64,000 nt of DNA, taken from positions 219,241 to 283,240 of the forward strand of contig CAYRUR010000001.1 in NCBI GenBank assembly GCA_964427615.1, written 5' to 3'. A model generated the notes under the pieces. It saw only the letters and a program-made list of their open reading frames with translations, ran no database searches and was not told the origin of the DNA. Each line of letters starts with the position of its first letter. The stretch's first letter is position 1. Both the position numbers and the translations under genes were made by a program. This document shows positions 22,990 to 63,752 of this stretch, one piece after another. Source of the DNA: an uncultured Gammaproteobacteria bacterium. Its GTDB lineage: Bacteria; Patescibacteriota; Microgenomatia; Levybacterales; GWA1-39-11.

Positions 22990-23009
22990 GATTATTAATT
23001 TAAAAGTTA

Positions 23010-23100: not shown

Positions 23101-23103
23101 TTT

Positions 23104-23967
23104 TCATTCGTGTTCACTTACGATTTTTCCTCTCAGTGTTCTTAATTCCTTGAGTGCTATTTTGGCTTCTTCTTGGTTCGGTGGTTTGCCATGCCAAGTG
23201 TAATCCTTTTCCATAAAGCTTACTCCTTTACCAGGTATAGTATTGGCGATAATAACGGTTGGTCTCTCAGAAGTAGCTTTAGCTTCTCTTACTGCGTCAA
23301 CTATCATACGAATATTGTGTCCGTCTATCTCAATAACTTTCCAGTTAAAAGCTTCGTATTTATACCGCACAGGCTCTAGAGGCATAACATCCTCGGTAGT
23401 ACCATCTATCTGGATGTAATTACGGTCTATGATAACGGTGAGGTTATCTAATTTGTATTTTGATGCAAACTGTATTGCTTCCCAGGTGTTTCCTTCTTGA
23501 TGTTCACCATCTGAGGTAAGGCAGTAGATGTGATGCTTTTTTTTATCCATCTTTGCTGCTAAGGCCATTCCGCAGGCTTGCGAAAGTCCTTCTCCTAAAG
23601 GCCCTGATGTGGTTTCTATGCCTGGTAATGCACCTCTATGAGGATGCCCTTGTAGTCTACTGCCAAATTTTCGTAGTGTTTTTAATTCTGTTGTAGGAAA
23701 ATAGCCTGCCAAGGCTAAAGTTGCGTACTGCACAGGACAAATGTGTCCATTGGAAAGAACTAGTCGGTCTCTGTCTTCCCAATCAGGGTTTTTTGGGTCA
23801 TGACGCAAAATATGAAAATAAAAAGCAGTAAATACATCTGTCATACCTAATGGTCCAGCAGAGTGGCCAGAGCGTGCTTCCAGAAGAGATTCAATAATAA
23901 GTTGTCTGATTTTATTGGCTTTTTCTTCTAAATCTTGGAGTTTTTCTTCGTGTAGTTCATCTAGCAT
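23104..23967 (-). CDS. Transketolase N-terminal subunit (TPP-binding)
   Basis: SGHSAGPLGMTDV...LSNGH...GEDGPTHQ-type motifs, here LTSDGEHQEG. Confidence 0.88.
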   Translation of the reverse strand: MLDELHEEKLQDLEEKANKIRQLIIESLLEARSGHSAGPLGMTDVFTAFYFHILRHDPKNPDWEDRDRLVLSNGHICPVQYATLALAGYFPTTELKTLRKFGSRLQGHPHRGALPGIETTSGPLGEGLSQACGMALAAKMDKKKHHIYCLTSDGEHQEGNTWEAIQFASKYKLDNLTVIIDRNYIQIDGTTEDVMPLEPVRYKYEAFNWKVIEIDGHNIRMIVDAVREAKATSERPTVIIANTIPGKGVSFMEKDYTWHGKPPNQEEAKIALKELRTLRGKIVSEHE

Positions 23968-24021
23968 AATCTCAGTATAGCAGGAATAGGTAATTGTTTT
24001 AAAGCATTCTGTTATGAGTAA

Positions 24022-25302: not shown

Positions 25303-25427
25303 ATGCTCATTGTAAGCATAAAGAGACAGAGTATGCAACTTGTTACCTAAAAATTTCGTTTGGTGTTTATTTTCCTGATGAAAGTAGTATCTCGTCTGAT
25401 GCATAAAAAATGGTATAATTTTTGCCA

Positions 25428-26048
25428 ATGGATAAAAAAGAAAAAGCCTTACATATTGCCCAAACATTACAAAAACTCTACCCAAATCCCCACACTCCCT
25501 TGCATCACACGAGTCCTTGGGAATTGTATGTGGCAGTAGTACTTTCAGCTCAAAACACGGATAAGGGAGTAAATAATGTTACGCAAGACCTTTTTAAAAA
25601 ATATAAAACACTTGATGATTATTGCAAAGCCTCTTATGAGGAGTTTGATAAAGATATTAGTAAGATTAACTTTCACAAGAATAAAGCCAAATCTATCAAA
25701 GGTGCAGCTGATATCATAGCAGAACAGTATGGTGGAAAACTGCCCCAGACAATGGAAGAATTAGTAAAATTGCCAGGAGTTGGCAGAAAAACAGCCAATG
25801 TGATTTTGCAAGAAGCATTTGGAAAAACAGAAGGGATTGTAGTTGATACGCATGTAAAGCGTCTGGCTAACTTATTTGGATTAACCAACAGTCAAGATCC
25901 TGAAAAAATAGAACAAGACTTAATACAGCTTTTGCCAAAAGAGATGTGGCATAATTTTGCGCTAGGTCTTATTCTCTATGGTCGTGAATACTGCCCTGCC
26001 CGGTGTAAGCATGTAGATTGTCCATTAAGAGAACAGATTCTTCACTAA
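25428..26048 (+). CDS. nth: Endonuclease III
   Basis: HhH-GPD motif LVKLPGVGRKTANVIL; C-terminal Cys cluster CPARCKHVDCP. The ATG is the third codon of the ORF-track frame, and TATAAT lies about 9 nt upstream. Confidence 0.82.
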   Translation: MDKKEKALHIAQTLQKLYPNPHTPLHHTSPWELYVAVVLSAQNTDKGVNNVTQDLFKKYKTLDDYCKASYEEFDKDISKINFHKNKAKSIKGAADIIAEQYGGKLPQTMEELVKLPGVGRKTANVILQEAFGKTEGIVVDTHVKRLANLFGLTNSQDPEKIEQDLIQLLPKEMWHNFALGLILYGREYCPARCKHVDCPLREQILH

Positions 26049-27939: not shown

Positions 27940-30165
27940 ATGAATATTCTGCCCTTTCTGAAAAAAACAAAAGAAGAAAGAGAATACTTTCTTGCACTTA
28001 TTCTGAAGCAAAACAGAATCGGTGCTATTCTCTTTGAAAAGACTGCAAAAGGACTTGATGTGCTTACCTCCTCTGATCAGGAGCAGAAAAATCTGCAAAG
28101 CTTAACCGATGAGGAGCTTATTGAAGCATCTGATGCAGTTATTTCCACTGTTGAGAAAAGCCTTCCTCCTCACATAGATCTTAAAAAAACCATTTTTGCT
28201 ATTCCGTATACCTGGCAAGATGAAGGAAAAATAAAACCTGAAAACCTGACAAGATTGAAGAAAGTGTGTCAGGAATTAGATCTTACACCAGTTGGTTTTA
28301 TTGTCTCTATTGAAGCTATGATTCATGCCCTGCAGCAGAAGGAGGGAGCCTCTTTATCTGCTCTGTTTGTGGAAGTAGAGAAAAAAGAGGTTCATGTTTT
28401 CTTAGTAAAGAACGGAAAAATACTGCAAGTTAAAAATGGAGAATGGCAAAGCTCTGTGGTGGATACCGTAGAAAAACTACTAAAAGATATAGAAGAAGTT
28501 GAGGTGCTTCCTCCCCGTATTTTTTTGCAAGATGATAAAGAAAGTCATGCTATCCAGCAATCATTTTTGCATCACAGTTGGCCAGCAGACCTCCCCTTTT
28601 TACATGTTCCACAGGTGATTGTGTTTGAAAAAGGGTTTGAAAACGAGGCACTGATTCATGGTGTAGCCTCTCAAATGGGAGTTGAGATGTCTTTTGCCAA
28701 ACAAGACACTCAGCCTGCTGAGGAAGAAAGTGTAGAAAATGCAATTGAGCCAGTCGAAGAGCTTGAACATATTGATAAACAAGCCAATTTTTATAAAGAA
28801 GTAGATGTGCGATTTGAGAAAGCTCCGGTTGAAGAGGAAAAGGAAGATAAGCCTGAAGCTTCTTTTGCGCAGGAAAGCAGCAGTGTGCCTACCCATGCTT
28901 TACCCTTAGCAGAAGAAACCTCAGAGAAAAAAGAATCTTTCCTAAAAAAGATACGGACATTAGCTATCGTGGGAAGTCTTAAAGAAAAAATGAGTAGTAT
29001 CTCTCTTCCTTCCTTTTTAGGTGGGTCGAATATGCGTCTTAAAATTGGAGGAGGTATAGCAGTAGGCATACTTCTATTAGTAGCTTTTGTGTATTCCTAC
29101 TATGCCTTTATAACTCGAGCGGAGATTGTGCTTTTTTTGGATAAAAGAATGGTAACAGAAGAAGTGCCGGTAACCTTTTCTACAGAAGATGAGACCTCTG
29201 TAGAAGATGCAGTTATTCGTCTTGCTACTACCTCTCAAGAACTGGAAGGCTCAGCCAAACAAAAAACAACCGGTAAAAAAGAAACGGGTGAAAAAGCAAA
29301 GGGAGAAGTGACTATTTATAACAAGACTGATGAACCGCAAACAATTGAAAAAGGAACTATCCTTAGTTCTTCAAATGATTTAGAATTTGAGACATTAGAT
29401 GAGGTAAAAGTTGCCTCGACCAGTTCTTTTTCTACTTCATTTTCGAGTAGTAAAGTAAGTGTCGAAGCAAGAAAATTAGGCAAAGAATACAATCTCCCTT
29501 CTGCTACTAACTTTACGGTTGAGTCTTTTTCTTCCTCAGAGGTGTTTGCGAAAAATGACTCTGCTTTTTCAGGAGGTTCTAAAAAAGAATTAAAAGTAGT
29601 GTCTGAAAAAGATTTAGCAGATCTTGAAGAAGCTATTGAAAAGCAATTGAGTGAGAAGGTATCGTCTTCTTTATCAAGTGGTGAAAGTGGCGATACAGTT
29701 ATTCCTGCTATTCTTGCGACAGAATTTGTAGAGAAAAAATTCAGTAAAAAAGAAGGAGAAGAAGCAGAGGAAGTATCTCTATCAGCAAAACTGGCCTTTG
29801 AAATTGGAAGATATAACGAAGAAGATTTAGAAAGCTTTGCCCAAGAACTAACCAATGAATCTATTCCAGAGGGGTATACCTATGTAAAAGATGAATCGCG
29901 TATTCAAATAGAAGATGTAGAAGTAACAGAAGGTGCGATGAATGGGGTTTTGGCTGTGGAGGCAGTGTATGTACCTGCACTTGAAGTAGACACTTTAGCA
30001 AAAGACCAGCAAAGAAAGAGTAAAAAAGAGGTAGAAAAGCAATTACAGGAGCTAAAAGGTGTGTCTGATGTTACCGTAATTTTGAAAAACCAGTTGCCAT
30101 TGTTGCCTGCATTGCTTCCTTTTAATGCCAAGCATATTATCATTCAAACGAAAGCTCATGAGTAA
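27940..30165 (+). CDS. Bitopic membrane protein: N-terminal cytoplasmic domain of about 350 aa, one TM helix, and a Ser/Glu/Lys-rich exodomain
   Basis: Its start abuts the alaS stop. The TM helix is GGGIAVGILLLVAFVYSYYAFI. The N-terminal domain has a weak actin-like (FtsA/PilM-like) appearance, which is speculative. Confidence 0.55.
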   Translation: MNILPFLKKTKEEREYFLALILKQNRIGAILFEKTAKGLDVLTSSDQEQKNLQSLTDEELIEASDAVISTVEKSLPPHIDLKKTIFAIPYTWQDEGKIKPENLTRLKKVCQELDLTPVGFIVSIEAMIHALQQKEGASLSALFVEVEKKEVHVFLVKNGKILQVKNGEWQSSVVDTVEKLLKDIEEVEVLPPRIFLQDDKESHAIQQSFLHHSWPADLPFLHVPQVIVFEKGFENEALIHGVASQMGVEMSFAKQDTQPAEEESVENAIEPVEELEHIDKQANFYKEVDVRFEKAPVEEEKEDKPEASFAQESSSVPTHALPLAEETSEKKESFLKKIRTLAIVGSLKEKMSSISLPSFLGGSNMRLKIGGGIAVGILLLVAFVYSYYAFITRAEIVLFLDKRMVTEEVPVTFSTEDETSVEDAVIRLATTSQELEGSAKQKTTGKKETGEKAKGEVTIYNKTDEPQTIEKGTILSSSNDLEFETLDEVKVASTSSFSTSFSSSKVSVEARKLGKEYNLPSATNFTVESFSSSEVFAKNDSAFSGGSKKELKVVSEKDLADLEEAIEKQLSEKVSSSLSSGESGDTVIPAILATEFVEKKFSKKEGEEAEEVSLSAKLAFEIGRYNEEDLESFAQELTNESIPEGYTYVKDESRIQIEDVEVTEGAMNGVLAVEAVYVPALEVDTLAKDQQRKSKKEVEKQLQELKGVSDVTVILKNQLPLLPALLPFNAKHIIIQTKAHE

Positions 30166-30883
30166 GCACTACTACAAAAAAGTACCAAATCCAAAACAGA
30201 AAAAAATGGTCAGGATGGTTGGTTTATCCTTCTTGGGCGTAGGTGCTCTTTCATTTATTTATTTTCTCTTTCCTATTATTTCCTACAGTCTTTTTCTTTC
30301 TCCTGCTTTTGCTTCAGGAGATATAGAAGCTCCTATCCCTCGCTATCTAGTGGCCACAGAAGATAATAGATTTACTACTCTTATCAAGCAAGGTATTGCT
30401 TCTTTAACTTCAGATTATATTGATGCTCGTAACTGGTATCCCCAAATTGCAGTGGAAAAAGAGAAAAAAACAGAAGTAAAGCAATACTCACTTGCTATTC
30501 CTAAGCTACAGATTGAAAATGCTATAGTCTCTACAGTTGATTATGATCTTTCAAAAAATCTTGTTCATTATTACGGTCCAGCTAGCCCAGTAGAAAAAGG
30601 GACGTCTGTAATTTTTGGCCATTCTACACTTCCTCAGTGGTTTGACCCTACCAACTACAAAGCTATTTTTGCTACCTTACATACGATAGAAATAGGAGAT
30701 GATTTAGTGGTTACCGTAGATGGGAAAGCATATACCTTCAAAGTTTTCTCAGTTACCGTAACAACACCTGAAGATGTGAATATTTTTTCTCAATCCTATG
30801 ATAATAGTTATATAACCTTAGTTACCTGTACACCACCTGGTACTACTTGGAAGCGACTTATCGTGAGAGCAAGTCTACAATAA
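30158..30883 (+). CDS. Sortase (transpeptidase) with an N-terminal TM anchor
   Basis: Catalytic His in VIFGHSTLP, TLVTCTPP with the catalytic Cys, and a conserved Arg in KRLIVRA. The ATG overlaps the upstream stop by 8 nt. Confidence 0.8.
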   Translation: MSKHYYKKVPNPKQKKMVRMVGLSFLGVGALSFIYFLFPIISYSLFLSPAFASGDIEAPIPRYLVATEDNRFTTLIKQGIASLTSDYIDARNWYPQIAVEKEKKTEVKQYSLAIPKLQIENAIVSTVDYDLSKNLVHYYGPASPVEKGTSVIFGHSTLPQWFDPTNYKAIFATLHTIEIGDDLVVTVDGKAYTFKVFSVTVTTPEDVNIFSQSYDNSYITLVTCTPPGTTWKRLIVRASLQ

Positions 30884-31120: not shown

Positions 31121-32407
31121 ATGGAAGAAAAGCAAAAAGTTGCACTTGAAGCAATACAAAAAAAATTATTGGGAAAAAAGCTGACTTACAAAGAAATCTA
31201 TGCCATCATGGACCAAATTGCTGAAGATAGGCTAGGTGATATCCTTACAACTTACTTTGTGGCATCTGGTTACTCAAATGGATTTACCGATGAAGAGATC
31301 TACTATCTAACAAAGGCGATGATCGAGACTGGAGAAACCTTGGAGTTTGAGGGCACTGTAGCTGATAAACACTCAATTGGAGGCAGTCCTGGAACCAGAA
31401 CTACGATGATTGTGGTTCCCATCATTGCTGCAGCTGGTTTTAAAATTCCAAAGAGTTCCTCGCGTGCTATTACCACCCCAGCAGGTACTGCAGACGTAAT
31501 GGAAGTATTGGCAAACGTTACGTTTTCAAAAGAGAAAATACACAAGATTGTTGAAAAAACAAATGGTTGTATTGTCTGGGGAGGAAGTTTTAAAATCGCT
31601 CCTGCTGATGATGAGATTATTCGTATTGAAGAGCCATTGATGTTTGAGAGTTTTGATAAGATTTTAGTCTCTATCATGGCCAAAAAAATTGCATTTGGCT
31701 CTACCCATGTGGTGATTGATCTTCCCTATGGCAAAACTATGAAAGTACATAGAAGAGAAGATGCAGAGGTCTTGCGCAAGAAATTCGAGTTTTTAGCTGA
31801 CAAATTCAATATTGCGATGAAGGTTTTGGTGCACAAAATAGATGAACCAGCTGGAAGAGGTGTAGGACCGCTTTTAGAAGCGCGCGAGGTACTTTGGGTC
31901 TTAGAACAACATGAGAAAAGATCACAGGACCTAGAAGAGAAGTCCATCCAATTGGCCAAAGAGTTACTTGATCTGTGTTTGCAGGATGCAAAGAAAGAAG
32001 TACAACAAGAAATTGCCGAAAGGTATGTGGATACAGAGGACTGGGCTCGACACCTGTTGTCATCCGGAGCAGCACATACTAAAATGATGGAAATTATTGG
32101 AGCTCAGGGAGGAGATCCTAAGGTAAAGTCCTCAGACCTGAAGCTTGATAAATTTGCGTATGATGTAGAACATGAAGGGCCTTCCGGAGTAATTACGCAT
32201 GTGCATAACAAAAATGTCTCTTTAACCGCCAAAATTTTAGGAGCACCTGAGGATAAAAAAGCTGGTATCTTTTTACATAAAAAAGTGGGTGATAGGGTTA
32301 AAAGAGGTGAAGTATTATGTACTTTGTATGCACAGACAAAGTACAAATTAAAAGAAACAGTGGACTCTTTGGAGATTCTTCCCCTTTTTTCCATTGAAAA
32401 AGGATAA
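31121..32407 (+). CDS. Thymidine/AMP phosphorylase family (glycosyltransferase family 3) enzyme
   Basis: ADKHSIGGSPGTRTTMIVVPIIAAAG...TTPAGTADVMEVL matches the pyrimidine-nucleoside phosphorylase signature. Confidence 0.8.
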   Translation: MEEKQKVALEAIQKKLLGKKLTYKEIYAIMDQIAEDRLGDILTTYFVASGYSNGFTDEEIYYLTKAMIETGETLEFEGTVADKHSIGGSPGTRTTMIVVPIIAAAGFKIPKSSSRAITTPAGTADVMEVLANVTFSKEKIHKIVEKTNGCIVWGGSFKIAPADDEIIRIEEPLMFESFDKILVSIMAKKIAFGSTHVVIDLPYGKTMKVHRREDAEVLRKKFEFLADKFNIAMKVLVHKIDEPAGRGVGPLLEAREVLWVLEQHEKRSQDLEEKSIQLAKELLDLCLQDAKKEVQQEIAERYVDTEDWARHLLSSGAAHTKMMEIIGAQGGDPKVKSSDLKLDKFAYDVEHEGPSGVITHVHNKNVSLTAKILGAPEDKKAGIFLHKKVGDRVKRGEVLCTLYAQTKYKLKETVDSLEILPLFSIEKG

Positions 32408-44525: not shown

Positions 44526-46637
44526 ATGGCTGACAAAAATAATAGACTCTATCCATTAGATAAAATTAGAAACATTGGAATCATTGCTCACATTGATTCC
44601 GGTAAAACGACCACCACTGAGCGTATTCTCTACTACACTGGTAGAAGTTACAAGATTGGAGATATTGATGAAGGAAATACAGTCATGGACTGGATGGATC
44701 AGGAAAGAGAGCGTGGTATTACTATTGTTTCTGCTGCTACTACCACCTTCTGGAAAGATACCCGTATTAACATTATTGATACTCCCGGACACGTAGACTT
44801 TACCGCAGAAGTAGAACGCTCTTTGCGTATTCTTGATGGTGCTGTAACTGTACTTGATGCAGAAGAAGGAGTACAGTCTCAATCTGAAACTGTGTGGAGA
44901 CAAGCTGATAAATATAACGTTCCTCGTCTTTGTTTTGTCAACAAAATGGACAAGATTGGCGCAGACTTCTTAAAGACTGTCAAGAGTATTGAGGAGAGAC
45001 TCGGTGCAAATCCTGTTATTATGGTGCTTCCTATTGGTGCTGAAAGTGATTTTGTGGGAGTATTTGACCTTCTAAATATGAAATCTATTGTGTGGAGTGG
45101 TGAGGATTTGGGAGCGAAATTCACTGTTTCTGATGATATTCCAGCAGGTATGGAAGCCCAAATTGAAGAGTACAGAAATAAGATGATTGAAAAGATTGCA
45201 GAGACAGATGATGCACTTCTTGAAAAATATTTCAGTGGAGAAGAAATTTCCAATGAAGAGTTACAGCAGGCACTCAGAAGCGCAACTATTGCTTATAAAG
45301 TTGTACCTATTTATGCAGGATCATCTTTGAGAAATAAAGGAGTACAGCCTCTACTTGATGCAGTAGTAAGTTATCTTCCGTCTCCTGCAGACTTAAAAGA
45401 AGTGAAAGGACTACATCCAAGAACTGGTGAGGAAGAGACTCGACAGCTTATTTTGGAAGAGCCTCTTTCAGCATTTGCTTTTAAAGTACAGGTAGATCCT
45501 CATGTAGGTAAAATTACGTATCTAAGAATTTATTCAGGAAAACTTGAATCAGGATCTTATGCGTATAATAGCTCTAAAGATACTAAAGAGCGAGTGGGAC
45601 GACTGCTTTTGATGCACGCTAACCAAAGAGAAGAAATTAAAGAAGCCTATGCTGGTGAAATTGTTGCTGTTGTAGGACTCAAAGAAACCGTTACTGGAGA
45701 CACGCTTTGTGATCAGGACCATCCTATTGTTTTAGAGCAAATTACCTTCCCAGAACCTGTTATTTCTCTTGCTATTGAGCCAAAAACAAAATCAGATCAG
45801 GAAAAATTAGGTGCAGCCATGAAAAGGTTGATGGAGGAAGATCCTACCTTTACTGTAAAAACAGATCATGATACTGCTCAGACTATTATTTCCGGTGTAG
45901 GAGAATTGCAATTGGATATTATGGTAGAGCGTATGAAGAGAGAATTTGGAGTGGAGGCAAATGTAGGTGCTCCACAAGTGGCTTATAAAGAGACTATCAC
46001 TGGTAGTGCAGAAGCAGAAGGAAAATACATCAGACAAACCGGAGGACGTGGTCAGTATGGACATTGTATGATTCGCATTGAGCCAAAAGGCCGTGGTGAA
46101 GGGTATGAATTTGTTGATGCTATTAAAGGTGGAGCAATTCCAAGTGAGTTTATCAAATCAGTACAAAATGGTATCAAAGAAGCAATGGAAAATGGTGTGC
46201 TTCTCGGGTATCAGCTTACTGACTTGAAGGTTACTTTGTACGATGGATCATTCCATGAGGTTGACTCTTCTGATATCGCCTTTAAGATTGCTGGAAGCCA
46301 GGCATTACAGTCTGGTGCACGCAAAGCACAACTTACCCTTTTGGAGCCTATTATGAAGGTAGAAGTAACCACTCCTGAAGAATTTATGGGAGATGTTATT
46401 GGTGATCTTTCCTCCAAGAGAGCACAAATCCTGGGTACTGAGGAAAGAGGAAATGCTCGCATTATTAAAGCCATGGTACCATTGGCAGAACTTACGGGAT
46501 ACGCTACTTCACTACGTTCTATTACGCAGGGACGAGCCACTCCTTACGTTGAGCCTTCTCATTATGAGGAAGTACCAAAGAATATTATTGATCAAATGCT
46601 TTCAAAATCTACCTTCTCAGGAAGAATTGAAGCTTAG
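44526..46637 (+). CDS. fusA: Elongation factor G
   Basis: AHIDSGKTT and DTPGHVDF motifs; full five-domain length. Confidence 0.95.
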
Positions 46638-46676: not shown

Positions 46677-47246
46677 ATGTCATCAAGATCTACTGAAAGA
46701 GGAGAAAATGTTATTTCTTTTCCTGTCTCCCATACAAGAGATGTTTCTACCCCTCGTGATTTACCAGAAGGACACATAGCAGAGGTTATCCCTTTCCCCA
46801 CTGATGAAAAACAAGAATCAATGGCTCTTGCAGAGGAAATTGCAAAAGAATTGAAAGCAATGTATGTAGGAGAGGAAGATGAGGATGGTAGAGTAAAAAA
46901 ACACAGATTTGTATTTCACAGGTTACCTGTAATAAGAGATGGAGAAGTAGCATATTCATATCTTGATATTGATGTGTTAGCAAACAGTGTATTTTTTTCT
47001 GCACAGGATGGATTAAGAATAGAGGTTAATGGGGTAACAGAAATAAAGGTGCGTAAAAATTGTGTTGATTTTAATAAACAAGATGAGTCAGGAGTAACTA
47101 GATTGCACATAAACAGTAATGGAAATGCTAGTTTGAGCCAATCATCAAATATGGTTGTTTTACTTGAAAACTTAGAAACACGCCCTGAAGGATCAGAAGA
47201 AGCATTAAGCAATTTATTGCAGTTCCACCGTGAAGATGGAGAATAG
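46677..47246 (+). CDS. Hypothetical protein
   Basis: 189-aa ORF between fusA and aclB with no recognisable motif. Confidence 0.35.
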   Translation: MSSRSTERGENVISFPVSHTRDVSTPRDLPEGHIAEVIPFPTDEKQESMALAEEIAKELKAMYVGEEDEDGRVKKHRFVFHRLPVIRDGEVAYSYLDIDVLANSVFFSAQDGLRIEVNGVTEIKVRKNCVDFNKQDESGVTRLHINSNGNASLSQSSNMVVLLENLETRPEGSEEALSNLLQFHREDGE

Positions 47247-47292
47247 ATTCGATTGCATTCATTCTTCTCTTTACCTATAATGTACTCACTGT

Positions 47293-48474
47293 ATGGCTCG
47301 CAAAAAAATCTCTGAATACGCAGCAAAGAACTTATTGTACCGTTTTTTAGACACTCCTTATACTGGTATTAGTATCCACTCATCACAAGATTTAGAAAAA
47401 ATACAAACCCTCTCAACTGAGAAAACATATGTCGTAAAAGTTGATGAAGGGGTAAAGGGAAGGTTTAAGAAAGGGTTGGTGTTACTTGATGTTACCAAAG
47501 AGGACATACCTGCATCCATAAAAAAATTAGAAGAAAAAGGATATACCCAGTTTTTAGTTGAAGAGTTTTACCATTATAAGGCAGAAGAAGAGCATTATTT
47601 AGCAATTGAAAGAGTACGAGAGGGATACAAATTGCTGTATTCTGAAAAAGGTGGCATTGCCATTGAGGAACATGTAGCAGCAGTACAAGAAAAGATTTTC
47701 ACTACCAAAGAAGGAATAGAATCTGTTGCTACAGAATTACATCTGGATCCTTTACTGTTGCTCAATATTTTGGAGGTTTTTGATGCGTATTACTTCTCCT
47801 TTTTAGAAATAAATCCTTTTATTAAAAAAGACAACCGCTTTATTCCTGTTGACCTAGCAGTAGAAGTAGACAGTGCAGGTGCATTTTTTGTGCAGAACGG
47901 CTGGAAGCAAGAGGATATGGTGGAAGAAGGAAAAGACAAAACAAAAGAGGAAAAAAATATTGATATGCTCTCTTCCAAAAGCCAGGCTTCTTTTAAATTG
48001 AATATGTTGCATACAGATGGTTCTCTTTTTATGCTCTTATCAGGTGGGGGAGCAAGCCTGGTAGTAGCAGATGAGGCATATAATTTAGGTTTTGGCAAAG
48101 AAGTAGCAAATTATGGCGAATATAGTGGCAATCCAACAGAAGAGGAGACATATATTTACACGAAAAATTTGTTACAGCTTTTACTACAATCAAGCGCAAA
48201 ACAAAAAATGCTGATAATAGCAGGGGGAGTGGCCAATTTTACGGATGTAAGGATTACGTTTAGGGGTATTATAAAAGCACTGGATGAAGTAAAAGAAACC
48301 TTGCAACAAGAAGAGGTAAAAGTATATGTAAGACGAGGTGGACCTAACCAAGAAGAAGGTTTGGCAATGATGAAAGAATTCTTAACAAAAGAACAGCTGT
48401 ATGGACAGGTAAGTGGTCCTGAAATTGTCTTAACAGATGTTGTTAAAAATGCAGTTGCGTTACTTGAAAAATAA
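47293..48474 (+). CDS. aclB: ATP-citrate lyase beta (small, ATP-grasp) subunit
   Basis: By-eye alignment to human ACLY N-terminus. MARKKISEYAAKNLLYRFL matches MSAKAISEQTGKELLYKFI. SGGGASLVVADE...ANYGEYSGNP and IIAGGVANFTDV...VRRGGPNQEEGL also match. Confidence 0.85.
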   Translation: MARKKISEYAAKNLLYRFLDTPYTGISIHSSQDLEKIQTLSTEKTYVVKVDEGVKGRFKKGLVLLDVTKEDIPASIKKLEEKGYTQFLVEEFYHYKAEEEHYLAIERVREGYKLLYSEKGGIAIEEHVAAVQEKIFTTKEGIESVATELHLDPLLLLNILEVFDAYYFSFLEINPFIKKDNRFIPVDLAVEVDSAGAFFVQNGWKQEDMVEEGKDKTKEEKNIDMLSSKSQASFKLNMLHTDGSLFMLLSGGGASLVVADEAYNLGFGKEVANYGEYSGNPTEEETYIYTKNLLQLLLQSSAKQKMLIIAGGVANFTDVRITFRGIIKALDEVKETLQQEEVKVYVRRGGPNQEEGLAMMKEFLTKEQLYGQVSGPEIVLTDVVKNAVALLEK

Positions 48475-48476
48475 CT

Positions 48477-50261
48477 ATGCTTACGATATCAAATATTAGA
48501 AAAACAGCGCACACCATACTCTGTATTGGTAGTCATCCAGGCATTATTCAGTCTATGCTGGATTTTGACTATTTAGCTGGTAAAAAAGAGCCAAGTGTAG
48601 TTGCTATTCTTGCAGCAGGAAGAAATTCTGAAAAGTATTTCTTTGGCAAAAGGGAAATACTCCTACCAGTGTATCACTCATTGCAAGCAATTCCAGAAGA
48701 GGTAAAACAGCACATTACCCTCTTTTTAAATCTGTCCTCTGCCAGAAGAGTGCTTTCTAGCACCCAAGATGTACTAGAACAGCTTCCAAACATACAGGGA
48801 GGAGCAATTTTTGCAGAAGATGTGCCTGAAAAACACTCACTAGATCTTTATCAAATAACTCGAGAAAAAGGAGTTTTTATAGTGGGTCCGGCAAGTGTGG
48901 GACTGCTTATTCCAGGAGTACTCAAGTTAGGTGCAGTTGGTGGGGTCGATATGCGGCAGTTAGTCGATTCACATTTATTTACTTCCGGAAGTGTGGCAGT
49001 ATTTTCAGCCTCCGGTGGGATGACGAATGAATTAATTCGTATTGTAACGCAGCAAGGAAAGCGCCTTTCTTTTGCTCTTGCTTTTGGAGGAGATAGATTT
49101 CCCATTACGAGTCCAGAGGACGCACTGCTTGCAGCTGAGCAAGATCCTGACACTGATACTATCTGCTACTTTGGAGAATTAGGAGGAACAGATGAGTATG
49201 TTATTGCTCAATTGTTGCATGAGAAAAAAATAACCAAAAAAGTCATTTGTTATATTGCTGGTGTTATTGCGGACCTTTTTGAAACTCCTCCCCAATTTGG
49301 ACACGCCAAAGCCATGGCAAAAGACAAACAGGAAAGCGCACAAGAAAAGAGAAAAATCTTACAAGAAGCAGGAGCTATTGTGCCTGAGTCTTTCACTGCA
49401 TTTGTAGAAGAGATAAAAAAGCTTCCTACAATCTCCTATAAAGAAGTAGATGTAACCGAAAAAATGCAGGCGATAAGAAGTCGAAAAAAAGCTCTTTTTT
49501 CCTCTTCTATCTCAGGTGATAAAGACGGACAAGCACAGATACTAGGTATTGATTTACTTACTTTTGCTAAAAGCCATTCGTTTGCTGCTACTGTTGCCTC
49601 TCTTTTTCTGGGACGGGAAGTCCAGTCAAAAGAAGTGGAAGACTTTATTGATTTTATCCTCCGCTTGTTAGTGGATCATGGGCCGTATCAATCAGGAGCA
49701 GTGAATACCATGATTACTGCTCGTGCGGGAAAGGACTTGCCATCAGCACTTGCATCAGGCATTTTAACGATTGGACCTCGTTTTGGCGGAGCAGTAAATC
49801 AGGCAGCTTTGAATTGGCTGAAAGGTGCAGAGAGTAAAAAATCGGTTATAGAATTTGTGGAGGACTTTGCTAGAAGAAAGGAATATATTTCAGGCATTGG
49901 ACATAAAAAATACAGAATTGACTTTCCAGATCCAAGGGTTGAGGAAATCTTAAAATTTACAGATGGTCTCAAAGAGAAAAAGTACGTGCAATTTGCACAA
50001 TCAGTAGAAAAAGTTACCGCAACCAAAAAAGGTAATTTGATTTTAAATGTTGATGGTGCCATTGCAGCAGTTTTGCTGGACTTATTGAGCGAAAAAGAGG
50101 GGATGAATGAGCAAGAGCTACAAAAATTGGCAGAACATGAATTCTTTAATGCACTCTTTATTGCTTCCCGTTCTATTGGTTTTATTGCTCACTATTTGGA
50201 TCAAAAAAGGCTTGATGAAGGGTTATTTAGATTATCAGAAGATGATGTGCTAGGAGTTTAA
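48477..50261 (+). CDS. aclA: ATP-citrate lyase alpha (large) subunit: CoA-binding/phospho-His domain plus a citrate-synthase-like domain
   Basis: [28 protein letters not shown] and the phospho-His motif QFGHAKA are present. The C-terminal domain [43 protein letters not shown] is near-identical to the ACLY stretch [54 protein letters not shown] also matches. Confidence 0.88.
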   Translation: [594 protein letters not shown]

Positions 50262-50273
50262 AAAGCGAAAGGT

Positions 50274-50843
50274 ATGAAACCAGGGGACATAGTTTTTCAA
50301 GGAAAATCGAAGAAAGGAACAGAGTTTGTGATTGGTTATCCTACTAATGAAGATATCCCAGCCATGCACTCCTATATTAATAATCTCTCACAAGAAAGAA
50401 CGTTTGTAACTTTTCAAGGAGAGGAAATTACGCTTGAGCAAGAAGAAGAGTTTGTGCAGGGTTTTCAGCAAAGGATGGAAAATAAAACAGGCGTGTTGCT
50501 GGTTGTGAAGACAGAAGATAGTATCATTGGTGTTGCAAGTATTGATTTGAATGAAGGGATTTTTTCTCATGTAGGATCATTAGCAGTATCAATTGCTAAA
50601 GGACATAGGGGAGAGGGAATTGGGAGTACACTGATGGAAAAAGTTATTTCTGAAGCAGAGAAGAATCTTTCTGCATTAAAGATAATAACGTTAAGAGTTA
50701 ACGGTAATAATATCGTAGCCTATGACTTGTATAAAAATAAATTTGGTTTTCAAGAAGCTGGAAGGATTCCAAAAGGTGTATTTCATAAAAACGAGTATGT
50801 AGATGAAGTGTATATGTATAAGTTTACAAACGCATTTCAGTAA
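50274..50843 (+). CDS. GNAT-family N-acetyltransferase
   Basis: HRGEGIGSTLMEKV acetyl-CoA-binding motif. Confidence 0.75.
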   Translation: MKPGDIVFQGKSKKGTEFVIGYPTNEDIPAMHSYINNLSQERTFVTFQGEEITLEQEEEFVQGFQQRMENKTGVLLVVKTEDSIIGVASIDLNEGIFSHVGSLAVSIAKGHRGEGIGSTLMEKVISEAEKNLSALKIITLRVNGNNIVAYDLYKNKFGFQEAGRIPKGVFHKNEYVDEVYMYKFTNAFQ

Positions 50844-51514
50844 TGGATGAAATTGAAAAATTAAAAAGCACATTACAAAAGAAAAATATAAAAGGGTTAG
50901 CACTGGATATTGATGAAACACTGTCAGGAACAGTAATCCATTGGATGCACCAGATGTTATTAGACTTAGGTAATCCTGAAAATCTTACTCCTGCTCAAAT
51001 AATTAAAAAATACAGATACCCAGAGAATGTTCCTTATTGGCAAACGGAAAAAGGTTATCAATGGATAGAAGAAAAAAGAAGAGACAATGCTATGCAGATT
51101 GATATACCTCTTGTAGAAAATGCAAATCATGTGGTAGAAAAAATAAATGCAATGATTCCTATAGTTGCTTATATTACTGCTCGTCCAATATCCATCAAGG
51201 AAGGGACAAAAAAATGGCTTCAAAAACACAACTTTCCACTTGCTCCTCTGATTATGGCTCCTGATGAAATATTGGTTGAAGGGAGAAGTGAATGGAAAGC
51301 GCAAGTAATGCAGTATCTTTATCCAGAAGTCCTTGGAATAGTTGATGATAATCCTGGATTTCTCAAGTTCCTTCCTCATGATTATAAAGGAATAGTTTTT
51401 CTCTATAACAATGACGAATACAATAATTCAGTACATACTGTTATTCCTTGTCCTAGGTGGGAAGATGTGTATTTACAGGCGCAGAGTATGTGTAAACCCC
51501 ATGAAACTCAGTAA
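50843..51514 (+). CDS. HAD-superfamily hydrolase
   Basis: LALDIDETL motif I. Confidence 0.6.
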   Translation: MDEIEKLKSTLQKKNIKGLALDIDETLSGTVIHWMHQMLLDLGNPENLTPAQIIKKYRYPENVPYWQTEKGYQWIEEKRRDNAMQIDIPLVENANHVVEKINAMIPIVAYITARPISIKEGTKKWLQKHNFPLAPLIMAPDEILVEGRSEWKAQVMQYLYPEVLGIVDDNPGFLKFLPHDYKGIVFLYNNDEYNNSVHTVIPCPRWEDVYLQAQSMCKPHETQ

Positions 51515-51547: not shown

Positions 51548-51835
51548 ATGGGTGCTGAGGATGAACTGGGAAAGGAGTATTTAATACATCGACTACCGGT
51601 TGATGCAAAAATAAAGAGAAGAGAGGGTGATGCAGTAACGACTCATCGGGAAGTAGCAGGAGCAATTGATGTTCACTTGTCTCAGTCTCCAGAAGAAAAA
51701 TTAGATGAGATTAATAGGAAGAGAAAAAACATTGAAAAAATATTCAAACAAATGCATACTGATGCAGAGGTTACTTGTGAAGTAATCTATCCTCGATCAA
51801 CAGGAAAGAATGAGGTAGTAGAAGATGATAGTTAA
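51548..51835 (+). CDS. Hypothetical small protein
   Basis: 95-aa ORF overlapping the murB start by 11 nt. Confidence 0.3.
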   Translation: MGAEDELGKEYLIHRLPVDAKIKRREGDAVTTHREVAGAIDVHLSQSPEEKLDEINRKRKNIEKIFKQMHTDAEVTCEVIYPRSTGKNEVVEDDS

Positions 51836-52799
51836 AGAAAATGTAGATTTATCAGAAATACTGTGGTACAAAATTGGCGGGAAAGCACGCTACGTATTGG
51901 AGTGTGAAAATAAAGAGGATGTACTGGATGCAGTCAACTTTATTTTTGAGAACAATATTGAACAGTATTTTGTCGTAGGCTGGGGTTCAAATCTTATTTT
52001 TCCTGATGAAGCATACGATGGAGCAATTATTTACCTGAAGCACGGAGATGATGGTTCTATGTATGTTACAAATGATCATTTCATTGATTGTTATGCAGGG
52101 AATTCTTTGGATAGTCTTATCAATTTTTCATTTAAAAACCACTTAGTGGGTCTTGAGTGGGCAGGTGGATTACCTGGAACAGTTGGCGCAGGAGTCAGAG
52201 GTAATGTGGGTGCTTTTGGCGGAGAAATACAAGACCTATTTGTGGAAGCAGAAGTTTTGGAGGTAACAGATGCAGGCGCAACAGTCAGAAAAATTACTAA
52301 AAATGATATGCATTTTGCATATAGAAGTAGTCTGGTAAAGCAAAGAGGAAATATGATAGTGCTCTCAGCACTTTTTGATTTTACACAGGCCACTCCTTCA
52401 CAAGTTCAGGAAGCAAGAGATATCTATCAGCAAAATATAAAGTACAGAAAAACAAATCATCCGTTGGAATTTCCTAACTGTGGTTCAGTCTTTAAAAATA
52501 TCCATGAAAAAGAAAAAGTAGAAAAAATACTTGCCGTAATGCCTGAGATAGAGGAAAAAGTAAAAAATAACTGGCATGGAAAGGTATCTATGGGGTATCT
52601 GATTCACAAATTAGGACTTACCGGATATAAAGTAGGAGATGCTCAAGTCAGTGAAAAACATAATAACTTTATTGTAAATGTGGGACATGCGAAAGCAGAG
52701 GATGTGAGAAAAATTATTACCAATATTCAGAAAAAGTTTCAGGATACGTTTGGTTTTGCTCCAGAGGTAGAGGTAGAAATTGTAAAGCTGAATAAATAA
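51825..52799 (+). CDS. murB: UDP-N-acetylenolpyruvoylglucosamine reductase
   Basis: FAD-binding PCMH region YKIGGKARY...VGWGSNLIF and GLEWAGGLPGTVGAGVRGN. Confidence 0.85.
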   Translation: MIVKENVDLSEILWYKIGGKARYVLECENKEDVLDAVNFIFENNIEQYFVVGWGSNLIFPDEAYDGAIIYLKHGDDGSMYVTNDHFIDCYAGNSLDSLINFSFKNHLVGLEWAGGLPGTVGAGVRGNVGAFGGEIQDLFVEAEVLEVTDAGATVRKITKNDMHFAYRSSLVKQRGNMIVLSALFDFTQATPSQVQEARDIYQQNIKYRKTNHPLEFPNCGSVFKNIHEKEKVEKILAVMPEIEEKVKNNWHGKVSMGYLIHKLGLTGYKVGDAQVSEKHNNFIVNVGHAKAEDVRKIITNIQKKFQDTFGFAPEVEVEIVKLNK

Positions 52800-54781: not shown

Positions 54782-57397
54782 TTACTTTAAATAAAACGTC
54801 TCTCCATCGGAGATCTTGGATTTGGGTTTGTTCTTGTCCTCAGTTTGTTTTGACTGTTTTTCTTGATTTTTATCATGTGGTTTTTTATCGGTATATTGTT
54901 TTTGCTGAGCTTGATGATGTTGTACATTTTTATGGTCTTTTGATTGTTTTTTTTCAGAAGAAGGATTGTGTTGTGGATGCTGTTTTGCAGTCTGTTGAGT
55001 TGGTTGGCCTTGTTTTGCCTGTGCTTTTTCTTCTTGCTTTTGGGCAGGATGATTTGTTGGTTGTCCGGCTGAATGGTGGGGTTTTTCCTGTTGTTTGACT
55101 GGAGTTTTTACCTCTTGGTTTTTGACAGAAGCAGTAACTGATAAGTCAGATTGTTTTTGCTGTGGTAGATTACTTGGTGCTCTTTGCTCTTGTTTAGGTG
55201 CTGGCCCGTCATATTTTTTATATTCAGGTTTTTCTACTACTAAAGGAGTTATCGTTTTATAATATCTTTCCTGAGATCCTTTTAAGACTTTTGGCCTATT
55301 TTGGTTACGACTATTAGGTAACGGCAAAGTTTGAGCCAAAAATGGAGAGCTTGTCATACCATCAATAGAGAGTCTGGTAATAATTTGATGCCTTCCAAGT
55401 GCGAGAATATCCTCTGCCTGGTATCTTTCTCCAAATTCTTTGGCTAAAATATCTAAATCCTCAGCTCCCACTAAAAAGGTCATGAGTGTGCCGACATTTC
55501 CAAAAATAGCACTTTTCAGTTCCGGTGGAAGTTGAGCCATGTACTGATTAGCAAGTGTTAAATTTAGACGATACTTGCGTGCCTCAGATAAGATTTTAAT
55601 AAAGGAGGTAGTGGCAAAGTTCTGGAACTCGTCAACATAGAGAAAGAAGTCCTTACGTTCTGCTTCAGGTATATACACACGATTCATGGCCGCCAATTGT
55701 AGTTTGGTAATAGTCATAGCACCTAGCAATGCAGAGTTATCTTCTCCCATTTTTCCTTGTGAAAGGTTGAAAAGCAGGATTTTTCTGTTGTTCATAATGT
55801 CTTCCAGATCAATAGTTGATTTAGGGTGTCCTACGATATTGCGGATAACATTGGAGGATAAAAATTGTCCTACTTTATTTAAAATTGGAGAGGTTGATTC
55901 TGTCATCATACGGTCATTCATTTTATTGAACTCATCCAGCCAGAAGGCTTTGATGACAGGATCAGTAACATATGTTTCTACAACTCTAGTGCGATATTTG
56001 TCATCTGTTAGAATGCGTGGTACGAGCATAAGTGTAGCATTGGGAATTTCAAGTAAAGTTAGAATAGTATTGCGTAAAATATACTCCAGTCGCGGTCCCC
56101 AAGAGTTTCCGTATAATTTATAGAAAATCGCTACGATACCGGAGGCAATCAGATCTTTTTGTGAAAGATCTTCATCCAATGGATTTAAATGAAATGATTT
56201 GCCTGTTCCTTCTGTGGGACTCAGATATACTACATCATTAATGCGATATGAAGGAATATAATCTAGGATTGTTTCACATAAATCTCCGTGAGGATCAATA
56301 ACTGCCAGTCCTTCACCATTTCTAATATCGTTGATTACCATATTAGCAATAAGCGTTGATTTTCCGACACCTGTTTTTCCGATGATATAGGTGTGTTTTC
56401 TCCTATCAATACGCTTCATACCAAAAGTAGAGAGGGTATTGCGAAAATAGGTTTTTGCAAAAAAATTAATTTCTTTTTTTCCTTCTGCATCAAGTCCTAA
56501 AGCAATGGGGAGGTCTTCTGGAGCATCAGAAAAAATTGTTTTTGCCCAGGAGATGTTGTGGATAGTTGAAAGTTGTTTGCCAGGAAAATGGAAAAGGGTA
56601 GCAATCTCTGAAAGATTTAGTATTTGGCCTGTAGGGATAAAAGATCCGCTACGGGTGATAAAAGCAGTATGTAGCTTGTCCTTTTGCCATAGATAAGGTT
56701 TTTTAAGCGACAGGCTGTTTCCGCTTGCGTTATTAAAGCCTGAAAAAGCAGTGGCGATTTGCAAAAAGAGGTCTTTATTAGGGCTTTTGACAAAGAGGCG
56801 GATACCTACCTTAAAACCATGTTGTCCTATTTTTTCACCAATCACCGCTGCATGAGGATTGGTAGAAGTAGTGCCGTCTGCGTTGGTGGTCTTTTTTTCC
56901 ATTTGTGCTCTTCCACTTGACTGCCAACTATTGCCAATTGGGACCAATAAATACTGAATGACCACCTGATCTTCTTGGGTAAGCTTTGATAACAAGCCTA
57001 ATAGTGAGGAAAGAGGGTCTACTTCCTTAAAATCAGTATATGTTTTTAAGGGGAGCAGATGTGATTGGTTGAGTGTAAGTTGTCCTTCGCGGATAGGAGC
57101 AGTAGGTTGGAGAACATACTTTAGGTAGTCTTCTTGCAAATGTCTTATTTGGGAATGTGGGTACTGTGAGTAAATCTGGCTTTCAATAAAGGGGGCAAGT
57201 GCTTTTGGGAGGACAACATAAAAATAAATAGTCTGGTCAAAAACAGCAATTTCAAAACTGATAGGAATGCCCTTTTTGATGAAAAAATAATGGGTTTTGC
57301 GCAGATTGGTAAGACTGGCTAACAACTGTACCATTACTTCCGGAGTTTCTTCACCAGTGCGTGGTGTTTTTATCTCTAAAATAGCCTTTTCTTCCAT
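54782..57397 (-). CDS. VirD4/TraG/TraD-like type IV coupling protein ATPase, soluble, with a long Gln/Lys-rich disordered tail
   Basis: Walker A is GKTGVGKST, followed about 20 aa later by VIDPHGD and then NPLD. Walker B is FLYVDEFQNF, and RLNLTLANQYMAQL is the T4CP Q-motif. No N-terminal TM helices. SD AGAGGT upstream. Confidence 0.7.
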   Translation of the reverse strand: MEEKAILEIKTPRTGEETPEVMVQLLASLTNLRKTHYFFIKKGIPISFEIAVFDQTIYFYVVLPKALAPFIESQIYSQYPHSQIRHLQEDYLKYVLQPTAPIREGQLTLNQSHLLPLKTYTDFKEVDPLSSLLGLLSKLTQEDQVVIQYLLVPIGNSWQSSGRAQMEKKTTNADGTTSTNPHAAVIGEKIGQHGFKVGIRLFVKSPNKDLFLQIATAFSGFNNASGNSLSLKKPYLWQKDKLHTAFITRSGSFIPTGQILNLSEIATLFHFPGKQLSTIHNISWAKTIFSDAPEDLPIALGLDAEGKKEINFFAKTYFRNTLSTFGMKRIDRRKHTYIIGKTGVGKSTLIANMVINDIRNGEGLAVIDPHGDLCETILDYIPSYRINDVVYLSPTEGTGKSFHLNPLDEDLSQKDLIASGIVAIFYKLYGNSWGPRLEYILRNTILTLLEIPNATLMLVPRILTDDKYRTRVVETYVTDPVIKAFWLDEFNKMNDRMMTESTSPILNKVGQFLSSNVIRNIVGHPKSTIDLEDIMNNRKILLFNLSQGKMGEDNSALLGAMTITKLQLAAMNRVYIPEAERKDFFLYVDEFQNFATTSFIKILSEARKYRLNLTLANQYMAQLPPELKSAIFGNVGTLMTFLVGAEDLDILAKEFGERYQAEDILALGRHQIITRLSIDGMTSSPFLAQTLPLPNSRNQNRPKVLKGSQERYYKTITPLVVEKPEYKKYDGPAPKQEQRAPSNLPQQKQSDLSVTASVKNQEVKTPVKQQEKPHHSAGQPTNHPAQKQEEKAQAKQGQPTQQTAKQHPQHNPSSEKKQSKDHKNVQHHQAQQKQYTDKKPHDKNQEKQSKQTEDKNKPKSKISDGETFYLK

Positions 57398-63260: not shown

Positions 63261-63752
63261 GTGGGGACAGCCGTATTAGAGGTTCCTCAGATTGAGGAGC
63301 AGGTGAAGGGAAGTACTTTTCTTGCGTCTGTCATCAAAGCAGAGATAAAGCAAGGAGAGGTAAGATACTACTTCATCATCGCCCTACCGTCGGAATTAGA
63401 TTTGGCTAAGAGAGCCGAATCGTTCCCCCTGGAAATTCCAGGTAAATTCCTAAGATTTCTTCAGTGTACCTCGTATGGGGTGGTAATTCTGGATAAGAAA
63501 GATATCGGGATGAGGCAGTGGAATAAGCATACTCCAATGATTGTTCCAACTGTTGATTCTCTCTTGTTCACTTCCAGGGAAGAGGTGATGAGGCTAGAAT
63601 CTTTCTCCTCCGGACTGCTGGGGCTTACCTTGGATGGGAAATCTGAGGTATGTGAATCAGTAGAGGTAAGACAGTCTGGTGATTGTCTTATCGTCTGGAC
63701 ATACCAAGAAGGGGGTTATTGCACAGTCAAAACGATTACTCTGAAGGGATAA
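63261..63752 (+). CDS. Hypothetical protein (GTG start) in a compositionally GC-richer segment
   Basis: 163-aa ORF; local GC is visibly higher than in the rest of the window. Confidence 0.3.
   Translation: MGTAVLEVPQIEEQVKGSTFLASVIKAEIKQGEVRYYFIIALPSELDLAKRAESFPLEIPGKFLRFLQCTSYGVVILDKKDIGMRQWNKHTPMIVPTVDSLLFTSREEVMRLESFSSGLLGLTLDGKSEVCESVEVRQSGDCLIVWTYQEGGYCTVKTITLKG

Follow-up and report, generated by a model that had tools for sequence, protein, structure and literature searches.

The 64,000-nucleotide stretch analysed here (the window), which lies on contig CAYRUR010000001.1, carries two adjacent genes, aclB and aclA (47293–50261), that encode a heteromeric ATP-citrate lyase (EC 2.3.3.8; ACL). 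Judged by residue conservation, the enzyme is genuine and catalytically intact. The source organism is, on sequence similarity, a Levybacteria-like member of the Candidate Phyla Radiation (CPR, Patescibacteria) and as such would be a very small symbiont. We favour, with some reserve, the view that this bacterium, which would lack a tricarboxylic acid (TCA) cycle, uses an intact, vertically inherited ACL to cleave scavenged citrate to acetyl-CoA.

Both genes lie on the plus strand and are separated by 2 nt. The first, aclB (47293–48474), encodes the small (beta) subunit, a 393-residue protein recognised by its Pfam domains, PDB matches and conserved ligands. Its ATP-grasp domain (residues 2–204, nt 47296–47904) scores 95.7 bits against PF24948 (Citrate_synth_N, the ATP-grasp domain of ATP-citrate synthase; cutoff 83), and its citrate-binding domain (residues 215–388, nt 47935–48456) scores 189.8 bits (E = 4e-56) against the ACL-specific PF16114 (Citrate_bind; cutoff 26.8). 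The second gene, aclA (48477–50261), is a single open reading frame (ORF) encoding the large (alpha) subunit, which is 594 residues long. According to Pfam and PDB alignments, this subunit consists of a CoA-binding module resembling the alpha subunit of succinyl-CoA synthetase (SCS; about residues 16–315) and a fused, citrate-synthase-like C-terminal citryl-CoA lyase (CCL) module (about residues 337–591). PF00549 (Ligase_CoA) matches residues 177–300, and PF00285 (Citrate_synt, C-terminal) matches residues 365–585 (E = 6.8e-24).

Both subunits were searched against all PDB chains. The best match of the small subunit is ACLY-A of Methanosaeta (Methanothrix) concilii (6hxi_A; 4.6e-62, 214 bits), which aligns over the full length, as do residues 1–416 of human ACLY (9e-55). 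The large subunit aligns end to end with residues 501–1091 of human ACLY (5.4e-104, 352 bits), and M. concilii ACLY-B is nearly as good a match (6hxi_B; 4.2e-100, 339 bits), followed by the Chlorobium limicola protein (6hxj_B; 1.3e-68, 235 bits). A sequence-only reading of this DNA had proposed a two-subunit ACL in which aclB precedes aclA, and the domain content and the best structural matches bear this out.

Active-site conservation was assessed by aligning the window proteins with 33–36 CPR relatives and with the human and M. concilii sequences, which were rebuilt from printed alignments. The functional residues considered, in human numbering, are those of the ACLY literature: the ATP/Mg ligands K58, R66, E118, N203 and D216 and the citrate ligands G309, N346, T348 and R379 in the AclB-equivalent part, and E599, H760 (the phospho-histidine), H900, H975, R986, D1026, R1065 and R1085 in the AclA-equivalent part. 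All 17 are identical in the window and are invariant or nearly so across the CPR relatives. Those of the small subunit are kept in 34–36 of the 36 relatives; the equivalent of Y364 is not conserved. The large-subunit set, including the equivalent of E599, is kept in 32–33 of 33 relatives, with H975, R986, D1026, R1065 and R1085 invariant (33/33) and H900 present in 32. The catalytic motifs of the CCL module (49671–50213, plus strand), namely VDHGP (H900), GIGHK (H975), LILNVDG (D1026) and a 16-residue motif (R1065), are all conserved in the window. VDHGP occupies AclA residues 399–403, ARAGKDL residues 415–421 and TIGPRFGGA residues 431–439, so the motifs DHGP, ARAGKDL and TIG.RFGGA listed in the sequence-only reading are all present.

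The phospho-histidine motif listed there is also present as far as the catalytic residue is concerned, but the surrounding loop is a variant. In the alignment, the loop QFGHAKA (49293–49313, plus strand, AclA residues 273–279) places the catalytic His at AclA residue 276 (nt 49302–49304), opposite human H760. The loop reads GHAKA rather than the canonical, near-universal GHAGA, with Lys replacing Gly at position +2 from the His. The Lys is fixed in the window and in all 33 CPR relatives, and of 50 family-wide representatives none outside the CPR clade has it. P0133, P0135 and P0144, which make up a smaller CPR group, retain GHAGA. On this alignment, the GHAKA Lys is a signature of the CPR clade. 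The M. concilii enzyme (6HXI, 6ZNW) has the same two-subunit layout and identical domain order, and all catalytic residues are common to both enzymes, but its loop is GHAGA, its linker before the CCL module is approximately 20 residues longer and its small subunit is approximately 28 residues longer.

By homology, the ATP-grasp domain of AclB would phosphorylate His276 of AclA, and the phosphate would then be passed to citrate bound in the citrate-binding domain of AclB. Attack by CoA would yield citryl-CoA, which the fused C-terminal CCL module of AclA would split into acetyl-CoA and oxaloacetate. Citrate would be drawn from a host or from the environment. The small acetyl-CoA pool thus formed might feed acetylation by a GNAT acetyltransferase that is probably co-transcribed with aclBA, as well as amino-sugar and cell-wall precursors, while the oxaloacetate by-product could be routed to aspartate, malate or phosphoenolpyruvate (PEP).

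The taxonomic setting bears directly on this role. AclA homologues with 60–66% identity include several from named Ca. Levybacteria. Forty-two loci were taken from GTDB species genomes, mostly Levyibacteriota, Saccharibacteria, Paceibacterota, Roizmanbacteria, Magasanikbacteria and Microgenomates metagenome-assembled genomes (MAGs). Many loci (L003, L004, L006, L007, L024, L025, L028, L029, L032–L035 and L040) have CPR-type ACL genes and neighbours but are labelled “uncultured Gammaproteobacteria” or “Pseudomonadales”. These labels, including that of a complete 938-kb chromosome (OZ246401.1, L040), are probably wrong. Both the TCA cycle and its reductive form (the rTCA cycle) are largely absent in the phylum (PMC13293708), and in a lineage of this kind ACL would not be expected to serve carbon fixation. 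Citrate scavenging to form acetyl-CoA has been proposed for the ACL of a Gracilibacterium (Sieber et al. 2019, PMC6851277), and aclAB genes are enriched in Saccharimonadia MAGs (PMC12577380). These CPR enzymes resemble the window enzyme in that they occur without a TCA cycle and are proposed to convert citrate to acetyl-CoA and oxaloacetate. The Gracilibacterium ACL, however, is described as archaeal-like, laterally transferred and equipped with a GHAGA loop, a description that sets it apart from the window enzyme.

Gene context was surveyed in about 48 related loci. GNATs directly adjoin ACL in 13 loci, including the window, in at least four arrangements; no further ORF of that kind occurs among the 824 ORFs of all loci. 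In L030 and L033, a GNAT homologous to that of the window (35% identity, E = 3e-31) lies directly upstream of an ACL whose large subunit is split; Saccharibacteria loci and L017–L020 each feature a different, distantly related GNAT beside ACL. In L008, a membrane O-acyltransferase is found upstream of ACL, and a nucleotidyltransferase and glmS are found downstream. The tdh and kbl genes, the products of which convert threonine to glycine and acetyl-CoA, lie directly upstream of ACL in L002, L025, L041 and L049. In a Patescibacteria MAG (L001:4186–8736), two genes directly precede aclB-aclA-murB, one for a 930-residue phosphoketolase (XFP) with a CoA_binding_2 domain fused to its C terminus and the next for an AMP-forming acetyl-CoA synthetase (Acs). 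This phosphoketolase fusion is unusual and suggests direct conversion of acetyl-phosphate to acetyl-CoA. An archaeal-type PEP carboxylase (PEPC; TIGR02751, 490 bits) lies two genes upstream of ACL in L005, L007 and L024. In these three loci (e.g., L007:2560–6655), the genes preceding aclB encode the PEPC, a dCTP deaminase and a conserved 563-residue protein without a family match. In Levybacteria-like loci, murB or ddl adjoins ACL.

Guilt by association of this kind makes citrate cleavage the most likely role, which is favoured because the neighbours are centred on acetyl-CoA, because the phylum largely lacks a TCA cycle and because the same has been proposed for other CPR bacteria. By analogy, the role is probably comparable to that of cytosolic ACLY in eukaryotes (6HXH, 6POE, 3MWD), that is, acetyl-CoA supply outside the TCA cycle. 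The sequence-only reading had offered acetyl-CoA production from citrate as one of two options, and the conserved gene neighbourhoods favour it. Several observations nevertheless weigh against citrate cleavage. The ACL reaction is near equilibrium, and its direction therefore cannot be fixed from the sequence. Cleavage costs one ATP in an energy-poor organism. Some of the neighbours (tdh-kbl, Acs and PEPC) make acetyl-CoA or oxaloacetate and are just as compatible with the reverse reaction. None of the flanking genes is universal, the conservation of neighbours being lineage-specific, and no citrate transporter was found in the 64-kb window, in approximately 9 kb of the 330-kb contig adjoining it, or next to ACL in any locus. 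The GHAKA variant beside the catalytic His, which may affect activity, counts here as well.

These points bear on the alternative that ACL runs mainly in reverse in vivo, forming citrate, CoA and ATP from acetyl-CoA, oxaloacetate, ADP and Pi. In that direction it would be a citrate synthase that conserves ATP, serving substrate-level phosphorylation or supplying citrate to a biosynthetic branch or for export. We regard this as unlikely, though it is the main alternative. The near-equilibrium chemistry and the failure to find a transporter in the sequences covered are in its favour, and the acetyl-CoA producers (tdh-kbl, or Acs with phosphoketolase) placed directly upstream of aclBA in several CPR loci, together with the oxaloacetate-producing PEPC, are arranged as successive steps of a pathway might be. 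A precedent is Desulfobacter postgatei (Moller et al. 1987, cited in PMC9768450 and PMC8085960). However, the commonest neighbours are acetyl-CoA consumers (the GNATs of 13 loci and the O-acyltransferase of L008), which fit ACL as a supplier. Moreover, citrate would be a dead end without aconitase, which was seen in no locus, and acetate formation through an ADP-forming acetyl-CoA synthetase or Pta-AckA would yield the same ATP without spending oxaloacetate.

The other option of the sequence-only reading, partial rTCA activity, fares worse. ACL is the classical marker enzyme of that cycle, and a complete or partial rTCA cycle fixing CO2, as in Chlorobi, Nitrospirae, Aquificae and Campylobacterota, would account for its presence, yet we consider this very improbable in a CPR bacterium. 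None of the partner enzymes (2-oxoglutarate:ferredoxin oxidoreductase, fumarate reductase, aconitase, isocitrate dehydrogenase, SCS, malate dehydrogenase and PFOR) is annotated in the window or its extension of approximately 9 kb, nor did any turn up among those ACL neighbours that are annotated in related loci. The Chlorobiaceae/Nitrospinae type of enzyme, represented by C. limicola AclAB (6HXJ), is likewise a heteromeric bacterial ACL with equal domains and chemistry. It works in the rTCA cycle, a role not expected for the window enzyme, to which it is merely 33% identical (235 bits), and it lacks a C-terminal segment of approximately 14 residues that the window enzyme retains. ACL is also not restricted to a few rTCA bacterial groups, as had been stated, since homologues are spread across the CPR (Levybacteria, Saccharibacteria, Paceibacteria, Roizmanbacteria and Magasanikbacteria) and also occur in DPANN and other archaea (PMC6851277; PMC12577380).

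The window enzyme had also been described as strikingly similar to eukaryotic ACLY, with a small subunit aligning almost residue by residue with the human N terminus. The alignment is indeed colinear over the full length, and the catalytic, citrate and ATP ligands are conserved, but the small subunit is just 35.1% and the large subunit 37.5% identical to human ACLY. Corresponding values are 39.6% and 35.4% against M. concilii. M. concilii itself is 49.5% (small subunit) and 55.9% (large subunit) identical to human ACLY and is much nearer to the human enzyme than the window enzyme is to either. For instance, a Methanotrichaceae AclA reaches 763 bits with the human enzyme and 426 bits with that of Chlorobium, compared with 352, 339 and 235 bits for window AclA against human, M. 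concilii and Chlorobium, respectively. As a sequence for comparison, a Chlorobiaceae representative (P0191) with an equal 235-bit score stood in for the C. limicola protein. The higher score to human than to Chlorobium is partly due to a deletion specific to Chlorobi and Nitrospinae and to their long branch.

When 1.84 billion cluster representatives were searched exhaustively, only 146 proteins were returned at E <= 1e-30. CPR clusters are 42–62% identical to the window enzyme, and the next matches, which include both two-subunit and fused forms, are 39–40% identical and comprise, among others, sequences from Ca. Norongarragalinales, a DPANN archaeon, and from the fungus Paraphysoderma. Trees were built by neighbour joining (NJ) from Kimura distances with 100 bootstraps, which suffices to assign sequences to clades but not to settle the deep branches. 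When 62 sequences were placed in such a tree, those with GHAKA grouped in a single CPR-only clade (93% bootstrap). Its weakly supported neighbours are the GHAGA sequences P0133, P0135 and P0144, and one member of the P0144 cluster is annotated as Ca. Saccharibacteria. DPANN, Chlorobiaceae (P0191) and Nitrospinae sequences come next, and the human, fungal and M. concilii sequences are located elsewhere. Backbone support does not exceed 72%, and the deep placement of the CPR clade is weakly supported.

The CPR clade has private features, namely a linker before the CCL module that is approximately 20 residues shorter and two single-residue insertions, and no indel in the family alignment is common to the CPR clade and eukaryotes exclusively. 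A specific sister relation to eukaryote-type ACLY was considered and rejected on these grounds: the clade stands apart in the NJ tree, no indel is exclusively shared, and identity is limited to 35–37.5%. In these sequence comparisons, the window enzyme is a long separate branch that is not especially eukaryote-like. It also differs from eukaryotic ACLY in architecture, the latter being a single fused polypeptide with a regulatory linker. Fused ACL-like proteins are common outside animals, as evidenced by P0130 (1003 residues), P0201 (1023 residues, Nitrospinae) and other representatives of 900–1160 residues. In P0130, the AclA-like part is N-terminal (residues 22–600), which would reverse the eukaryotic fusion order. 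The origin of the eukaryotic enzymes is debated, ACLA/B having been placed next to DPANN and ACLY next to Thermoplasmatota-E3 (PMC11976288).

Composition, genomic setting and phylogeny together indicate long vertical inheritance within the CPR without recent import. The GC z-scores of aclB and aclA relative to the window genes are -0.97 and +0.75, respectively, both GC3 z-scores are close to 0, and the residuals of codon usage amount to +0.54 and -0.58 standard deviations. A scan of the window revealed no compositional island. The horizontal acquisition that the sequence-only reading had suggested checking thus leaves no trace in GC content or codon usage, with both genes within one standard deviation of the window genes. 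The two genes are adjacent in every related locus that has both ends on the contig, and the AclA tree inside the CPR roughly tracks taxonomy. The pair is best described, from these sequence data, as an old, vertically inherited trait of a large CPR-specific ACL clade.

Recent acquisition from a eukaryote or an archaeon, or a binning or assembly contaminant, is hardly credible against this background. In its favour are the higher score to human ACLY than to Chlorobium, the report that the Gracilibacterium ACL is archaeal-like and laterally acquired (PMC6851277), and the fact that, outside the CPR, the named organisms with the closest sequences are a DPANN archaeon and a fungus. However, the score excess is partly explained by the long Chlorobi branch and its private deletion, M. 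concilii is far closer to human, and the sequence lies deep in a CPR-only clade with its own indels and GHAKA loop. In addition, aclBA matches neighbouring genes in composition and resides among ribosomal, translation and cell-wall genes on the contig, a placement that is the same in the relatives with 60–66% identity. What this evidence opposes is a transfer in recent times; one between domains may have taken place long ago, at the base of the CPR clade.

That the proteins are citryl-CoA synthetase (CCS) or SCS homologues misread as ACL can be set aside almost completely: the top NCBIfam matches are SCS subunits and citryl-CoA lyase, but NCBIfam contains no ACL model and these matches reach 63–109 bits against cutoffs of 336–375 (e.g., 66 versus 375.6 for TIGR01016 and 109 versus 336 for NF004230, both SCS models), while the best PDB matches are ACL, the ACL-specific PF16114 is present in AclB, and AclA keeps its citrate-synthase-like domain, which is joined to the SCS-alpha-like part within one 594-residue ORF. 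The corresponding PDB matches to Hydrogenobacter thermophilus are far weaker than those to ACLY, both for the small subunit against the CCS large subunit (6hxq_B; 8.5e-12, 48 bits) and for the large subunit against the CCS small subunit (6hxq_A; 3.7e-21, 78.6 bits) and CCL (6hxp_A; 4.9e-19, 71.6 bits), and SCS matches are weaker still. Membership in the CCS/CCL group was rejected because, in addition, CCL is not a separate polypeptide in the window, and membership in SucCD was rejected on the subthreshold SCS scores and the presence of the Citrate_bind and Citrate_synt domains. The sequence-only reading had named best matches to CcsAB or SCS and loss of the CCL domain as the outcome that would overturn it; the searches returned the opposite on both counts.

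In seven CPR relatives, aclA is replaced by two genes (L028:10001–11753, L029:8035–10819, L030:4527–6417, L032:10001–11789, L033:4297–6193, L034:3067–4963 and L035:776–2669). One encodes the SCS-alpha-like part (approximately 320 residues) and the other the citryl-CoA lyase part (approximately 265 residues), which has its own ATG. The split point always falls in the same inter-module linker, and the gap between the two genes ranges from 4 to 139 nt, except in L029, in which it is 1000 nt. The seven split forms constitute one clade (96% bootstrap) nested among fused forms, which points to secondary fission and indicates, at the sequence level, a natural three-gene ACL. The H. thermophilus enzymes (6HXQ, 6HXP), which have homologous modules and catalyse the same two-step chemistry, show a layout that these split loci mimic. 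In contrast, the CCL module of the window is fused and only weakly similar to its Hydrogenobacter counterpart. A 309-residue ORF without a Pfam or Rfam match lies between the two aclA halves in L029 (9006–9935). In L023 and L038, aclA is split at other places, and these cases look like assembly errors or pseudogenes.

In the window, the gene order is rpoC, rpsL, rpsG, three minus-strand genes (encoding a metallophosphoesterase, a PPIase and an Xaa-Pro peptidase), fusA, a hypothetical gene, aclB, aclA, a GNAT gene, a HAD/LNS2-like gene, a 95-residue hypothetical ORF, murB and an SLT gene. The fusA gene (EF-G; 44526–46637, plus strand), identified by its Pfam EF-G domains, is an upstream core gene. 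Its adjacency had been used as a functional clue, but it shows only that aclBA is located in a core region and says nothing about function. In close relatives, fusA and tuf enclose aclBA, with ddl or murB adjoining it, and the order fusA, aclBA, (murB), tuf recurs in L047 and L048. The slot between fusA and aclB, occupied in the window by a 189-residue hypothetical ORF (46677–47246, plus strand) without Pfam or NCBIfam matches, is not conserved, being filled by ddl, kbl or another hypothetical gene in relatives.

The window GNAT (50274–50843, plus strand, 189 residues) matches Pfam Acetyltransf_3, _1, _7 and _10, carries the acetyl-CoA motif RGEGIG at residue 112, and shows weak NCBIfam matches to ArsN1 and RimI. 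Since it starts 12 nt past the aclA stop and its end overlaps the next gene, it is probably co-transcribed with aclBA and is likely an acetyl-CoA consumer. The overlapping gene (50843–51514, plus strand) encodes a putative HAD/LNS2-like phosphatase of 223 residues (PF24694, 3.4e-07). After the 95-residue ORF comes murB (UDP-N-acetylenolpyruvoylglucosamine reductase; 51825–52799, plus strand), identified by Pfam FAD_binding_4 and MurB_C; murB is also found 3' of aclA in L001, L002, L003, L025, L048 and L049. A promoter and terminator scan of the 44.3–54.8 kb region yielded fewer sites than shuffled sequences. It found no plus-strand terminator between the genes, which is compatible with co-transcription and says little more. 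The consensus scan missed a perfect TATAAT hexamer at 47276–47281, the end of which is 11 nt from the aclB start codon; TTGCAT lies 17 nt upstream of this hexamer. The two elements suggest a candidate internal promoter, the leader of which would be very short.

The rest of the window is typical CPR housekeeping (nusA, infB, rpsO, pnp, RNase J, ftsK, alaS and rpoB/C), along with a split transketolase, a nucleoside phosphorylase, sortases and a type IV secretion system coupling protein. The extension beyond the window contains only pilus, Clp, sortase and hypothetical genes, and Rfam and tRNA scans of the window gave no matches. A small set of carbon-metabolism genes lies at 20354–25485 (minus strand) and 31121–32407 (plus strand). 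They encode an FAD-linked oxidase (D-lactate/glycolate dehydrogenase-like), a two-gene split transketolase, a MOFRL/DUF4147 glycerate-kinase-like protein and a thymidine/AMP-phosphorylase-family protein, and represent typical CPR sugar and nucleoside salvage without a link to ACL. Just downstream of the ACL cluster, on the opposite strand, an 871-residue protein (54782–57397, minus strand) shows weak TrwB/TraG-type (type IV secretion coupling) matches. At 27940–30883 (plus strand), a 741-residue protein with only a weak Baseplate_J match is followed by a sortase, and a second sortase lies just outside the window start. A 163-residue GTG-start ORF at 63261–63752 (plus strand) deviates strongly in composition (GC 0.453, GC3 z = +4.2, codon-usage residual z = +2.3). 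It matches no Pfam or Rfam family and may be a spurious gene or foreign DNA.

The presence of ACL in the CPR was reported in 2019 and 2025 (PMC6851277; PMC12577380), and its enzymology is textbook knowledge. What could be new, as it appears to be undescribed, is the breadth and coherence of a CPR-specific GHAKA clade, the fission of the CCL module in seven loci and the recurrent acetyl-CoA-centred neighbourhoods. A more far-reaching and speculative view, which we find improbable as a whole, is that the CPR hold a large, old, private ACL radiation, marked by GHAKA and the shortened linker and including a monophyletic three-gene subgroup. In these symbionts without a TCA cycle, ACL would then lie at the centre of a minimal acetyl-CoA node that connects with GNATs, tdh-kbl, Acs, phosphoketolase and PEPC, and in some lineages it might run in reverse as an ATP-yielding citrate synthase. 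The deep position of the clade near DPANN and two-subunit forms could, in that case, bear on the origin of eukaryotic ACLA/B.

Nothing in these data alters what ACL is, and given the earlier CPR reports the finding is useful rather than surprising. For annotation, it carries the caution that autotrophy by the rTCA cycle should not be concluded from ACL in a MAG. With regard to enzyme evolution, fused ACLs and naturally split ones are found together in the CPR clade, along with a conserved Lys near the catalytic His. Acetyl-CoA is indispensable, for instance for UDP-GlcNAc and for the N-acetylation of proteins and metabolites, and to our knowledge most CPR lack both the usual acetyl-CoA routes and the TCA cycle. 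A conserved ACL that, by its residues, is catalytically intact and is repeatedly linked to acetyl-CoA genes suggests that host citrate may be one of the carbon currencies of these bacteria.

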